From assembly GCA_015523465.1 (NCBI GenBank), contig WAKF01000023.1:6184-70183 (forward strand): a stretch of 64,000 nt of DNA. Reading direction: 5' to 3'. The DNA comes from Aeropyrum sp. GTDB taxonomy: Archaea; Thermoproteota; Thermoprotei_A; Sulfolobales; Acidilobaceae. Position 1 is the first letter of the stretch; each line of letters opens with the position of its first letter. A model generated the notes under the pieces. The model did not search any database. It saw nothing but the letters and a program-made list of their open reading frames with translations, and was not told the origin of the DNA. The position numbers were made by a program, and so were the translations under genes. Shown here piece by piece: positions 6,203 to 9,986 of this stretch.

Positions 6203-7102
6203 GTGCAGGGCCAAAGCAAGATTACAGAACTTAGGAAGGAGGCCGACGAAATAGCTAAGCAGCTTGAAGACTTGAGAAGCGAGATAGTTAGGCTTAAGGA
6301 GGAAAGGAGAAGGCTTATAGATGAGGTTAAGGGCCTTAGACAGCAGAGAAGAGTTCTTATAGACGAGAAAAGGAAGCTTGTTGAAAGGCTTAAGACGCTT
6401 AGAGATGAGAGGAAGAGGGTTCTAGACGCCCTAGCTAGGCTTAAGGAGGAAAGGAAGAAAGCTAGGGAAGAGTTGATTATAAAGAGGGATCAGTTGAGGG
6501 TCCTTCAGAACTTGGTTGCTAAGGAGGGCGGTAGTAATATTGCTAAAGTGAGCGTTAAGAGACTTCAAAAGAGGATTGAGGAGCTAGAGATGATAATGCA
6601 GACGAGGCTTTTAGCGCCTGAGGAGGAAAGAAGGATTATTGATGAGATAGCTAGGCTTGAGGAGATCGTTGAGAGAGTTAAGAAGGCTAGGCAACAGGTC
6701 CTATCACTTATAGAACTCAAGGCTGAGGTGAAAGCCCTAATCCTTAGGAATAGAGAGTTGACGGAGAAGATTAACGAGCTTAGGGAGAAGGCTGGCAGGC
6801 TTAAGGCTGAGCTGGGAGAGGTTACAAGGGCCATAGAAGACTATAACTCCAAGATCAACGAACTAACAGTTAAGATAGATGAGCGCAGCAAGGCTATAGA
6901 CGAGCTTACTGTTAAGATAGACGAACTACAGTCGAAGAGGAGGGAGCTAGAGAAGAAGTTAGCTGAGATAAAGTTTGCCATAGCTAAGGGAGTCGAATTA
7001 GAGGAGATTGAAAGGAAGAAGAAGGAGTTAACGGAGAAGATGAAGCGCGGGGAGCCTCTAACCCTGGAAGAGCTGAAGCTACTCTACGGCGTTTTAGATT
7101 AA
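6203..7102 (+). CDS. Conserved archaeal coiled-coil protein (COG1340-like)
   Basis: Continuous heptad E/K/R/L pattern, LAPEEERRIIDEI segment, and C-terminal KMKRGEPLTLEELKLL. Confidence 0.8.
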   Translation: MQGQSKITELRKEADEIAKQLEDLRSEIVRLKEERRRLIDEVKGLRQQRRVLIDEKRKLVERLKTLRDERKRVLDALARLKEERKKAREELIIKRDQLRVLQNLVAKEGGSNIAKVSVKRLQKRIEELEMIMQTRLLAPEEERRIIDEIARLEEIVERVKKARQQVLSLIELKAEVKALILRNRELTEKINELREKAGRLKAELGEVTRAIEDYNSKINELTVKIDERSKAIDELTVKIDELQSKRRELEKKLAEIKFAIAKGVELEEIERKKKELTEKMKRGEPLTLEELKLLYGVLD

Positions 7103-7197: not shown

Positions 7198-7269
7198 GGG
7201 TGCTCGGCTGGGTAAGTTGTCGTCATAGCCTCGAGGGCTCAGGCCGGGAGTAATTCGTCACTGCCACCC
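7198..7269 (-). ncRNA. Box C/D guide sRNA (minus strand)
   Basis: Minus strand reads GGGTGGCA-[C GTGACGA]-ATTACTCCCGGC-[D' CTGA]-GCCCTCGAGGCT-[C' ATGACGA]-CAACTTACCCAG-[D CCGA]-GCACCC. Terminal stem GGGTG/CACCC and two 12-nt guides. Confidence 0.78.
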
Positions 7270-7336
7270 TAGTGATTCTTAGGATTTAATGCGGGATTAA
7301 GAAGTTAATTCCCTAGGGTAACTGTAGCGGTTTAGG

Positions 7337-7401
7337 GGCACGGATGACGAGACTTGCCCCCACCTGATGTATGACGAGATTACCGCGGTCACGGACGTGC
7401 C
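7337..7401 (+). ncRNA. Box C/D guide sRNA targeting 16S rRNA helix 18 region
   Basis: GGCACG-G-[C ATGACGA 7344-7350]-GACTTGCCCCCAC-[D' CTGA]-TGT-[C' ATGACGA]-GATTACCGCGGTCA-[D CGGA]-CGTGCC. Perfect 6-bp terminal stem; guides antisense to GGGGGCAAGUC and GCCGCGGUAAU of crenarchaeal 16S. Confidence 0.9.
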
Positions 7402-7446
7402 TTCCCCCACACCATTTTAGCCGTAACACCTCTAGCTTGTGTATGG

Positions 7447-7803
7447 GTGAGTTTGGTCTTGGGGTGGACGGAGGATGTTTCTCTAGCCTTGAAGGTTCGG
7501 GGTTACCGTGTTTCGAGGGTTGTAGAGAGGTTTAGGAGTTTTGAGGGTTCTATCGTAGAGAGGATTAAGGTGGTAGGATTTAGTAGTGATGGTAGGGTTA
7601 AGATTAGCGTTGTGGGTTTAGAGGGAGGTTTAAAGGTTTCCATATTAGTTTCTGGCGGCATTGAGAGCTTACACGGCTTAGCTGAAGATGCTGAAGCTCT
7701 CGGAGGCATTGTAGACCTGGATGAGGATTCTGGGAGGCTTTATATAGTGTTTAAGAGTATTGATGTTGAGAGGGCGGGTGCTCTTATTGAGAGTTTGCTT
7801 TGA
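7447..7803 (+). CDS. Hypothetical protein (118 aa)
   Basis: Open frame with host-like codon usage (AGG/GAG/GTT rich); overlaps the next ORF. Confidence 0.6.
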   Translation: MSLVLGWTEDVSLALKVRGYRVSRVVERFRSFEGSIVERIKVVGFSSDGRVKISVVGLEGGLKVSILVSGGIESLHGLAEDAEALGGIVDLDEDSGRLYIVFKSIDVERAGALIESLL

Positions 7804-8962
7804 TGGCGTGTTAATGCCTAGCATAGATTGGGTCTCAAGGATTAGGAAGGCTGTTCCAGGCTATGCATTGGCCTCCATTGAGGGGGCTCCTAGCTTTAAT
7901 GATGTTAAGCTTGCTTGCGGCCCTTATACTAGCGGAGAGGGGCTTGAAGCGCCATACCTTGAGGCTCCTTCCAGGTTTCCTTTGAAACTGGAAAAAATAG
8001 ATCCTAGAGACGTCGCGAAGGGGCTGCTCGAAGCTATTGACGGCGAAGACGCTAATGGCTTTTTTAACCCATTGTCATGGAGGACATTGACGCCTGTTGA
8101 AGCAGAGACTCGAGGTTGCATTGAGAGCGAGTGGGGTCCTTTAGCTCCTCCGGGCCTAGACCAACTAATAACTTATGAGCCTTTAAGGTGCTTCACAGCG
8201 ACTCAGCCAGGTTCTCAAGGAAAGTTGGTGATAGGAGGGTTAGCCGAGTCTGAAGGCCGTTATACCAGGGTAGGGTTGTGGAGAGTCTACAAGCTAGCGG
8301 GTGGGTGGACGGGTTACGAGAGTGGCGGGTCTATATTGCTTGTACCAGGCTCTAGGGAGCTTGAGTTCAGGTTAAGAGCTGCAAAGGTTAAGGTGAGGCT
8401 ACTTTATTTAAACTCGTTCGCGGAGCCTCTGTCATCATGTTATTTTAGAGAAGGCTTATTTGAAGCTACGGCTCTTACCTTATCGTTAGGCCCGCGCAGG
8501 CTAGCCCTTGCATCTAAGGAGCCTTTTACCCTCGAGCTTACGAGGGGGCTTATGAGAATAAATGCGAAGACTCCCCTAAGACTTCTTGCTGGAGGAAGCG
8601 ATACAGCTTTTAGAGCTTTAGCTGAGAGCCTCGTTGAGTGGAAAGCCGTTGAAGGCCCCCGAACCCCTCTCAACTTCTATGGTGTATCGGCCCACGCTAT
8701 AGTGGTTTACGCTGGAGGCGGTGAAATTAGATTCAAAGCTCTTACCTTAGAGGGCTCTGAAGGCGGGAGGGTCCACTTCAACCCGCCAGGGCCTACAGAC
8801 TCCATAGAGGTTCTGGGACCGGGGGGTGAAATAACCGAGATGCCTGGAGGTCCTAGAGTTAGCGTCCCCTTGCCACCATGCTTCTGCGGATACATAAAAG
8901 TACGGTTACGTCCTAAGGCGAAGTTCAAGCTTAGAGCTAGGCTTGGGCGGAGTAGTATCTAG
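7760..8962 (+). CDS. Hypothetical protein (~400 aa; true start may be ATG near 7812)
   Basis: Long ORF; beta-strand-rich C-terminal half; no confident family. Confidence 0.65.
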   Translation: MMLRGRVLLLRVCFDGVLMPSIDWVSRIRKAVPGYALASIEGAPSFNDVKLACGPYTSGEGLEAPYLEAPSRFPLKLEKIDPRDVAKGLLEAIDGEDANGFFNPLSWRTLTPVEAETRGCIESEWGPLAPPGLDQLITYEPLRCFTATQPGSQGKLVIGGLAESEGRYTRVGLWRVYKLAGGWTGYESGGSILLVPGSRELEFRLRAAKVKVRLLYLNSFAEPLSSCYFREGLFEATALTLSLGPRRLALASKEPFTLELTRGLMRINAKTPLRLLAGGSDTAFRALAESLVEWKAVEGPRTPLNFYGVSAHAIVVYAGGGEIRFKALTLEGSEGGRVHFNPPGPTDSIEVLGPGGEITEMPGGPRVSVPLPPCFCGYIKVRLRPKAKFKLRARLGRSSI

Positions 8963-9705
8963 AGGCTTTCCGCCTCTCCAGCCTCTATAGGACCTCTCAC
9001 TCTAAGCCTACCCTCAGCCGCCGCTTTCACATAGTTTATGAAGTCCTCTTCGTAGGGTACACCTACGAATACTAGTTGACCGTTAATTGCTATGCTAGGC
9101 ACACTCATAACCCCATACTTATCGGCTATGTCAGTGTTCTCGTAGGCCTCGACGGCCTCAGATAGTATCACGGGGTTGCCTCCTACGTAGGCTTCGTATG
9201 CGAACATGTGGGATAGTAGGACGGCGTAGGGGCAATAGGGGCAACTGGGCGTTATTATAACCTCTATGTGGACCCTACCCTTTAGCCTCTTAAGCTCCTC
9301 CTTAGTAGAATCCTCGAGACCCGACTCTCTCTCACTCATCCTCATTATAACCTCCACTAGAGCCCTGATCTCCTCCCCCGCAGGTATTCCAGTCCACCTA
9401 GCATAACCCTCGATAAAGGATACTGTAGGAACCCTCTCAACCCTCTCCCTCTTAAAAGCCTCTAAAGCCCCCGGATCCTCCCTCCAGTACACATTGAGCT
9501 TGAAAAGCTTCCTGCCATCCCTAACAGGCGCCTCATCCTCTATCGCCTTCATCAACTCCAGCGTATCCTCGCAGGTATCACACCCCCTCCTAGACAGAAA
9601 CAGACTAGCCTCTACAGGATGAATCATCTCAGCCAGCGTATCCCTAAGGTCCCTACGAAAATCTGGTGATAAGTCTAACTCGTAGAATCTCCTATGCACA
9701 GCCAC
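8959..9705 (-). CDS. Protein disulfide oxidoreductase (PDO; two thioredoxin folds)
   Basis: CDTC and CPYC motifs, ERVPT and MSVPSIAING cis-Pro loops. The ORF track extends to 9810, but SD GGAGGTG places the start at a GTG near 9705-9699. Confidence 0.9.
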   Translation of the reverse strand: MAVHRRFYELDLSPDFRRDLRDTLAEMIHPVEASLFLSRRGCDTCEDTLELMKAIEDEAPVRDGRKLFKLNVYWREDPGALEAFKRERVERVPTVSFIEGYARWTGIPAGEEIRALVEVIMRMSERESGLEDSTKEELKRLKGRVHIEVIITPSCPYCPYAVLLSHMFAYEAYVGGNPVILSEAVEAYENTDIADKYGVMSVPSIAINGQLVFVGVPYEEDFINYVKAAAEGRLRVRGPIEAGEAESL

Positions 9706-9907
9706 CACCTCCCCATCTACAGCACTTCCCCAGCCTAACACTCTAACATAACCCTCCACAGGACTTAAACAATAATGCATACCCCCTCCCACTACAGTCC
9801 CAAATAACATACTCTAGGGGCAAGGCCCGAAACAATGCAGACTTAAGCACGTAAGCCCCCGTAGGGGTTAAAGGCACAGACAGCCTCACTACCCACACCG
9901 GGCCTGA

Positions 9908-9986
9908 GCGGCGGTCGTCTAGCCTGGACTAGGACGCCGGCCTGCCAAGCCGGAGGTCCCGGGTTCAAATCCCGGCCGCCGCACCA
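9908..9986 (+). tRNA. tRNA-Gly (GCC), no intron, encoded CCA
   Basis: Acceptor stem GCGGCGG/CCGCCGC, anticodon arm CCGGC-CTGCCAA-GCCGG, T arm CCGGG-TTCAAAT-CCCGG, 3' ACCA. Confidence 0.97.

Follow-up and report, generated by a model that had tools for sequence, protein, structure and literature searches.

Genes and features of the locus

The window, by which we mean the whole stretch of DNA that was analysed (64 kb), is held at ~100% identity by four 'hydrothermal vent metagenome' runs. Going by its sequence, the host is an uncultured relative of Aeropyrum with a G+C content of ~49%. The region studied here is a 344-nt gap between the ORFs 6203-7102, coding for a coiled-coil protein, and 7447-7803, unassigned and 118 aa long; no Pfam family was assigned to these flanks. 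This gap harbours a 65-nt element on the forward strand (7337-7401) which, on the basis of its sequence, is a real and well-formed gene for an archaeal box C/D guide RNA. Read from the window, its order is GGCACG-G-AUGACGA-GACUUGCCCCCAC-CUGA-UGU-AUGACGA-GAUUACCGCGGUCA-CGGA-CGUGCC (Table 1). The A/T-rich, TATA-like stretch in front of it is possibly its own promoter, and the orthologue in an Aeropyrum MAG has TTTAAA 27-32 nt upstream of the stem.

A second box C/D sRNA is located in the same gap on the opposite strand. Its order is GGGUG-GCA-GUGACGA-AUUACUCCCGGC-CUGA-GCCCUCGAGGCU-AUGACGA-CAACUUACCCAG-CCGA-G-CACCC, and its 12-nt loop includes the palindrome GCCUCGAGGC. With the same guide pair as sR441 of Ignicoccus hospitalis, it is the orthologue of that sRNA; its D' guide forms 11 Watson-Crick base pairs with GCCGGGAGUAA of a 23S rRNA (L118:4009), and it aligns to Pyrobaculum sR10 with 15.9 bits at permissive Rfam thresholds. 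It is a separate gene that travels with the 7337-7401 sRNA in the Aeropyrum lineage.

Table 1. Coordinates of the sRNA genes, their elements and their orthologues. Positions are those of the window unless a locus is named.
Feature	Position	Strand	Remarks
Second box C/D sRNA	7198-7269 (boxes 7204-7261)	-	divergent, 67 nt upstream of the first
A/T-rich TATA-like stretch AAGTTAATTCCC	7302-7313	+	24-35 nt upstream of the sRNA
Terminal stem, 5' arm, GGCACG	7337-7342	+	pairs with 7396-7401
Box C, AUGACGA	7344-7350	+	RUGAUGA variant, C at position 5
D' guide, 13 nt, RNA GACUUGCCCCCAC (DNA GACTTGCCCCCAC)	7351-7363	+	16S complementarity
Box D', CUGA	7364-7367	+	G.A pairs with box C' kept in all homologues
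k-loop, 3-nt loop UGU	7368-7370	+	3 to 12 nt in homologues, sequence not conserved
Box C', AUGACGA	7371-7377	+	architecture scan and homologue parsing
D guide, 14 nt, RNA GAUUACCGCGGUCA (DNA GATTACCGCGGTCA)	7378-7391	+	16S complementarity
Box D, CGGA	7392-7395	+	CUGA variant; final GA invariant in homologues
Terminal stem, 3' arm, CGUGCC	7396-7401	+	pairs with 7337-7342
Orthologue, Aeropyrum pernix	L001:12405-12471		syntenic intergenic region, both sRNAs present
Orthologue, Aeropyrum MAG	L002:1966-2036		only further copy in a pattern scan of 185,579 species genomes
Orthologues, Acidilobaceae-type contigs	L124:10770-10834; L125/L126:10854-10911		search of all fetched loci

At a distance of 1.5 kb lies a gene for a PDO-like thioredoxin-fold protein that is 77% identical to its A. 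pernix counterpart and 83-91% identical to metagenome proteins. The ORF as called (8959-9810, reverse strand) codes for 283 aa and is ~37 codons longer than all homologues (243-248 aa); judged by these lengths, the gene probably starts at the GTG at residue 38. With either start codon, no exact record of the protein was present in the protein collection. Just past this gene is a tRNA-Gly(GCC) (9908-9986, forward strand), the only match at Rfam gathering level in the 64-kb window.

Architecture of the 7337-7401 sRNA

An earlier note on this DNA had described the stem GGCACG/CGTGCC, boxes C and C' as ATGACGA, D' as CTGA and D as CGGA, and every base of this description was recovered. The terminal stem, an element that many but not all archaeal box C/D sRNAs possess, consists of six Watson-Crick pairs and is extendable by two G.U pairs (7335-6 with 7402-3). 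Boxes C and D each lie one step off the consensus, and C' also deviates. The variant boxes are mutually consistent in that C5 of box C is complementary to G2 of box D. Two sheared G.A pairs in tandem can form between G3/A4 of box C and A4/G3 of box D. The C/D k-turn AUGACGA/CGGA reads G.A at 1b.1n, A.G at 2b.2n, C-G at 3b.3n and G-C at 4b.4n. Internally, the C'/D' pair CUGA/AUGACGA with its 3-nt loop gives the k-loop typical of an archaeal box C/D sRNA. The spacers measure 13 nt (D') and 14 nt (D) versus an archaeal norm of ~12 nt (PMC7229835); among the relatives of this sRNA the D' spacer is 13-14 nt and the D spacer 12-15 nt long.

Both strands of the window were scanned for a C box, 11-15 nt, xxGA, 2-14 nt, a C' box, 11-15 nt and xxGA, flanked by a stem of at least 4 bp. 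Exactly two loci were found, 7337-7401(+) and 7204-7261(-). By chance, 0.01 loci are expected, as averaged across 100 first-order Markov randomisations of the window, and 0 when the stem has to be at least 6 bp long.

When the element was compared to Rfam at permissive thresholds, the generic archaeal C/D model snoPyro_CD (RF00095) aligned end to end with 26.4 bits (local E = 0.0016). This is below the gathering score of 45 bits, and because of this Rfam-based pipelines would not annotate the gene; the matches to sR23 (15.7 bits) and sR44 (13.7 bits) also missed the gathering threshold. The element is outside those particular families, which leaves its status as a C/D sRNA unaffected, since the models are genus- or guide-specific.

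Guides, targets and predicted methylation sites

Both guides are complementary to the 530-loop helix (helix 18) of crenarchaeal 16S rRNA, which belongs to the decoding centre. Nucleotides 1-11 of the D' guide form 11 Watson-Crick pairs with 16S nucleotides 502-512 (GGGGGCAAGUC), and nucleotides 2-12 of the D guide form ten Watson-Crick pairs and one G.U pair with GCCGCGGUAAU (E. coli 524-534). Each guide thus reaches 11 bp, compared to a usual requirement of at least 8-10 bp, with the N+5 position base-paired. The 11-bp duplexes, with the single G-U in the second one, had been proposed in the earlier note, as had methylation at roughly G504 and C526 by the N+5 rule, and our recomputation returned the same pairings and the same sites. 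For the D' guide, N+5 is C7359, opposite the third-from-last G of the G run (E. coli G504, pan-archaeal G481); for the D guide it is G7387, opposite C526 (pan-archaeal C503). Nine of the ten positions N+2 to N+11 are paired in the D' guide and likewise 9/10 in the D guide; N+1 and N+2 are unpaired in both. The number 504 comes from an ungapped, structure-consistent alignment and would be 505 in the gapped alignment of Dennis et al. 2015, in whose pan-archaeal numbering G507 corresponds to E. coli G530. From the sequence we predict Gm504 and Cm526 (pan-archaeal G481/C503) as the N+5 sites; the exact methylated nucleotides are inferred in this way.

No rRNA was detected within the 64-kb window by the Rfam scan, and complementarity was assessed on the 16S of relatives, on metagenomic 16S and on the published alignment of Dennis et al. 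2015. The crenarchaeal layout is GGGGGCAAGUC-UGGUGUCAGCC-GCCGCGGUAAU, with 11 nt between the two targets, so that the predicted sites lie 22 nt apart. In the published alignment (PMC4644070), GGGGGGCAAGUCUGGUGUCAGCC is present in P. calidifontis, S. acidocaldarius and I. hospitalis; the same three species have AAGCGGGGGGCAAGUCUGGUGUCAGCC, in which T. tenax shows one C-to-U change. We also fetched 120 metagenomic crenarchaeal rRNA loci, three of which were confirmed as SSU/LSU by Rfam. Their unanimity is given by construction, because the selection pattern contains both targets; the independent evidence for the target sequences is the published alignment and not these 120 loci.

A target search that freely permitted G.U pairs gave many spurious matches and was replaced by one allowing at most one G.U pair. 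With this limit, no better-pairing 16S or 23S site was found for either guide among the 120 crenarchaeal rRNA loci. The 16S variant GUGGGGGCAAGUC, which would provide a partner for the 'AC' adjoining box D', was not found in the metagenome scan, and this dinucleotide is therefore probably unpaired.

The four vent metagenomes with the window (X1-X4) hold many archaeal 16S variants as fragmentary unitigs that are shared among taxa. The target sequence occurs without a mismatch in some of these, one of which is a contig of 111 nt that has the depth of the window in X3; depth-based linking in these four metagenomes tied no 16S contig to the genome of the window.

According to structural work cited in PMC7229835, the enzyme takes a duplex of no more than 10 bp, counted from box D, and any surplus of spacer loops out towards box C. 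Work of the Ye laboratory reports that spacers exceeding 12 nt are tolerated and that the choice of the site still obeys the ruler from box D (PMC7229835). On this basis, both guides of the 7337-7401 sRNA look competent.

Orthologues and conservation

Aeropyrum pernix, the Aeropyrum MAG and two Acidilobaceae-type contigs have the guide cores CTTGCCCCC and ATTACCGCG in common with the window. Synteny searches based on the PDO homologue revealed no copy within reach on the distant Desulfurococcales contigs L127/L128 or on the short contig L123. Seven homologues were compared, five of them natural sequences and two published ones (I. hospitalis sR206 and P. calidifontis sR7). Since the spacers differ in length, MAFFT misplaced the 3' ends; the pairs were tabulated from hand-parsed segments that were checked against the loci.

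The D' core CUUGCCCCC is invariant (7/7). The D core AUUACCGCG is present in six of the seven, while P. calidifontis sR7 has the diverged UAUUCCGCG. All four G.A pairs are invariant as well. What varies is the length of the loop (3-12 nt), the first guide nucleotide (G, C, U or A) and the sequence of the stem, in which positions 3, 4 and 5 change on both sides with pairing kept (A-U/G-C, C-G/G-C and G-C/U-A, respectively). At 3b.3n the relatives have A.A (Aeropyrum), A-U (L124/L125) or G.U (Pyrobaculum), compared to C-G in the window. In the window, both sRNAs have xUGACGA as box C and again as box C', with C and not U at position 5, and the C/C' boxes of the Aeropyrum orthologues are UGAAGA, UGAUGA and UGAGGA. 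As far as these sequences go, the xUGACGA boxes point to a lineage-level preference at k-turn position 3b.

The divergent sRNA pair (7198-7401) is inverted as a block with respect to the flanking genes in A. pernix (L001:12270-12471) and in the Aeropyrum MAG (L002:1795-2036), and a different member of the pair consequently faces the downstream ORF of 118/119 aa. Because of this inversion, the conserved unit is the sRNA genes and not the leader of the neighbouring ORF. In L124 and L125/L126, the helix-18 sRNA follows the PDO/thioredoxin-fold gene in the same orientation, 50-120 nt past its 3' end, and it may be cut from the 3' end of the PDO mRNA. A loose linkage between the sRNA and the PDO gene spans these Acidilobaceae-type contigs and the window (1.5 kb).

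Additional vent contigs of X1 and X3 agree with the sRNA over its 3' half (7372-7407), beyond which their sequence differs (ATTAATTTATCC...), and a variant of the partner sRNA with three differences (7198-7230) also occurs in runs X1 and X3. From these divergent contigs and the variant it follows that the same sRNAs are present in another context in related strains or species.

Comparison with published sRNAs

Two sRNAs catalogued by Dennis et al. 2015 (BMC Genomics 16:632, Additional file 1, PMC4644070) have the same guide pair in the same order, with the same two 16S stretches as predicted targets. I. hospitalis sR206 (GGGGAUGACAACGACUUGCCCCCCUCGA...GAUGAAGAGAUUACCGCGAUGGGACCC) was detected with 3400 RNA-seq reads, and its predicted targets are 16S C505 (= E. 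coli C528) and G482. Its D' guide CGACUUGCCCCCC and D guide GAUUACCGCGAU resemble those of the window (GACUUGCCCCCAC and GAUUACCGCGGUCA), and box C AUGACAA together with box D GGGA likewise gives C-G at 3b.3n. It differs in a D' register shifted by 1 nt (G482 versus G481), in a D spacer of 12 versus 14 nt (C505 versus C503, i.e. C528 versus C526), in a loop of 9 versus 3 nt and in its unrelated genomic context. Pyrobaculum calidifontis sR7 (PCAsR07; AUGAGGACGACUUGCCCCCUAUUGA...CUAUUCCGCGGUCUGA) was likewise detected by RNA-seq and has 16S G481 as its predicted target (PMC4644070). Its D' guide CGACUUGCCCCCUA is in the same register as that of the window, and its D guide ends in ...CCGCGGU adjoining box D, as in the window. 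This D guide has diverged, however (CUAUUCCGCGGU, seven contiguous pairs), and no prediction was given for it by the authors; sR7 also differs in having the canonical CUGA and no terminal stem. By its sequence, the 7337-7401 element is an orthologue of this catalogued crenarchaeal helix-18 dual guide, a new member and not a new kind of element. The conservation, the compensatory stem changes and these published sRNAs with the same guide pair all support the proposal of the earlier note that a dual-guide box C/D sRNA is directed at the 530-loop helix of 16S rRNA.

Dennis et al. 2015 (PMC4644070) describe helix 18 as a methylation hotspot: five of the seven species have predictions there, 23 in all, which fall on 13 positions. 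Other guides can be likened to the present one. [quoted passage not shown] 2015 (Fig. 3b) discuss them in support of selection acting on coupled binding. Their sites are A512 and G491 (= E. coli A535 and G515) and their guides are unrelated, so they form a separate family. In Methanopyrus kandleri, sR127 is predicted to act at 16S C503 (and G478) and sR28 at G481 (and G521). This euryarchaeon is distant and the likeness lies in the predicted positions; it probably reflects convergent targeting of the hotspot. Yeast snR40 is an experimentally verified box C/D guide for a G in helix 18 of the SSU (18S Gm562; PMC4344503), but it is a eukaryotic snoRNA with another position and a single guide for helix 18. 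Reviews describe the majority of archaeal sRNAs directed at rRNA as dual guides whose two targets are no more than 100 nt apart. Guide indels are reported to shift the site within conserved families (Lui 2018).

Proposed function and alternative explanations

With a probability of about 0.88, we identify 7337-7401(+) as a box C/D sRNA gene for a helix-18 dual guide, orthologous to I. hospitalis sR206 and Pyrobaculum sR7. The observations behind this reading are the architecture, the conservation, the covariation, the complementarity to crenarchaeal 16S and the identity of the guide pair with that of published, expressed sRNAs. From these we infer expression in the host, assembly into an RNP, the nucleotides that become methylated and a role as a chaperone. 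The RNA of ~65 nt would fold with the C/D kink-turn at its terminal stem and with C'/D' forming a k-loop inside. As in those archaeal sRNPs that have been characterised, L7Ae would bind both k-motifs, and a Nop5 dimer would bring two fibrillarins. The D' guide, paired to 16S 502-512, would then direct 2'-O-methylation of G504, and the D guide, paired to 16S 524-534, that of C526.

The pseudoknot of helix 18 (530 loop) is formed by 16S nucleotides 505-507 with 524-526. We take G504 to be stacked under this pseudoknot and C526 to be the pairing partner of G505. As the guide duplexes cover both pseudoknot strands, the sRNP can bind only before helix 18 folds; it would probably hold the two strands together transiently, in a chaperone-like manner. 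Such binding ahead of helix-18 folding fits the proposed chaperone role, short of proof. A further proposal, which we make tentatively and which is rather less likely to hold than to fail, is that the sRNP is a clamp, transient but obligatory, which would set the time of pseudoknot formation in the decoding centre during 30S assembly or serve as its template. The growth of the D spacer from 12 to 14 and 15 nt would then represent sliding of the site from C528 to C526 and C525, or its loss, with the clamp kept.

The D spacer is the single point at which this sRNA is unusual. A spacer of 12 nt in L124, L125, I. hospitalis sR206 and P. calidifontis sR7 places N+5 at C528, the 14 nt of the window place it at C526, and the 15 nt of both Aeropyrum loci at C525. 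Because C526 is not C528, at least one lineage's prediction differs from the ancestral site, and this can be read in two ways: either this lineage has shifted its site along the 530 loop, in the way that Lui 2018 described in other families, or the D arm is becoming binding-only. In the latter case only the D' guide would direct methylation, the D guide of the Aeropyrum lineage being out of register by 2-3 extra nucleotides next to box D and serving only to anchor the RNA a second time, or as a chaperone arm, at the 530 loop. Besides the spacer lengths, the Aeropyrum loci favour this reading, as no more than seven of their positions N+2 to N+11 are paired, with N+5 in the final pair of the duplex. 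Dennis 2015 and Lui 2018 describe guides that have retained their complementarity but lack a robust prediction of methylation, and they propose chaperone roles for such guides. In the window, on the other hand, 9/10 channel positions of the D guide are paired and N+5 (C526) lies inside the duplex, and longer spacers are tolerated with the site still set by the box D ruler (PMC7229835), which makes a pure anchor unlikely. It is also conceivable that the methylated C is the ancestral C528, with the extra nucleotides by box D bulged out, in which case counting N+5 along the sequence would put the site in the wrong place. Where the core AUUACCGCG is kept, its distance from box C' is indeed constant, while that to box D varies, and C528 is the N+5 site in 4/7 homologues, among them I. 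hospitalis sR206. Against this, structural and biochemical work locates the ruler at box D/D' and has the surplus of spacer loop out towards box C/C' (PMC7229835), and guide indels are reported to shift the site in conserved families (Lui 2018); we regard retention of C528 as improbable.

Two other explanations concern the target of the D' guide and the identity of the element. The real target of the D' guide could be the 23S site GUGGGGGUAGGUC and not 16S: it offers 13 contiguous pairs, including the 'AC' by box D', in the 23S of a few crenarchaeal loci, where the GUGGGGGUAGGUC/U site spans L015:7467-7479 and L003:11327-11339 (metagenomic crenarchaea). Two of these 13 pairs are G.U, however, whereas all 11 at the 16S site are Watson-Crick; only 5 of the loci have the 23S site, which is also variable, and homologues with the 16S complementarity intact have AA, CC or UA in place of the 'AC'. 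Moreover, the target of the partner D guide lies in 16S at a distance of 22 nt, as is usual for dual guides, and a 23S target is thus very improbable. Hardly any likelihood is left for a chance constellation of short motifs, or for a leader or k-turn that belongs to the downstream ORF 7447-7803, in place of an independent sRNA. The element does sit 45 nt upstream of this same-strand ORF, the sequence-run search found the locus in no RNA run, and the MFE fold of the 65-mer is no better than that of shuffled sequences (z = 0.05); this last value is uninformative, because the nearest-neighbour energy model does not include k-turns and the RNA consists of two k-motifs and single-stranded guides. 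The chance count for the architecture is only 0.01, and the sRNA is conserved as a unit despite its inverted orientation to the flanking genes and its location 3' of a different gene in L124/L125. The helix-18 dual guide with N+5 sites at G504 and C526 is the reading that we retain.

Implications for the sRNA family

Lui et al. 2018 noted that the annotation of archaeal sRNAs is incomplete in most genomes for want of reliable, fully automated detection. With the present analysis, two sRNA genes with correct boundaries are added to a genome in which automated pipelines would pass them over. As an annotation of a known family it is sound, and it leaves the general picture of C/D sRNAs unchanged. 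The spacer variants of 12, 14 and 15 nt form a small natural series in which conservation of the methylation site can be set against conservation of the binding region. If the sRNP were a clamp whose site has slid or been lost, selection would preserve the binding and not the methyl group. The helix-18 guide represented by I. hospitalis sR206 and P. calidifontis sR7 is extended here to the Aeropyrum/Acidilobaceae lineage, and because of this extension the dual guide is old and widely kept in Thermoprotei.
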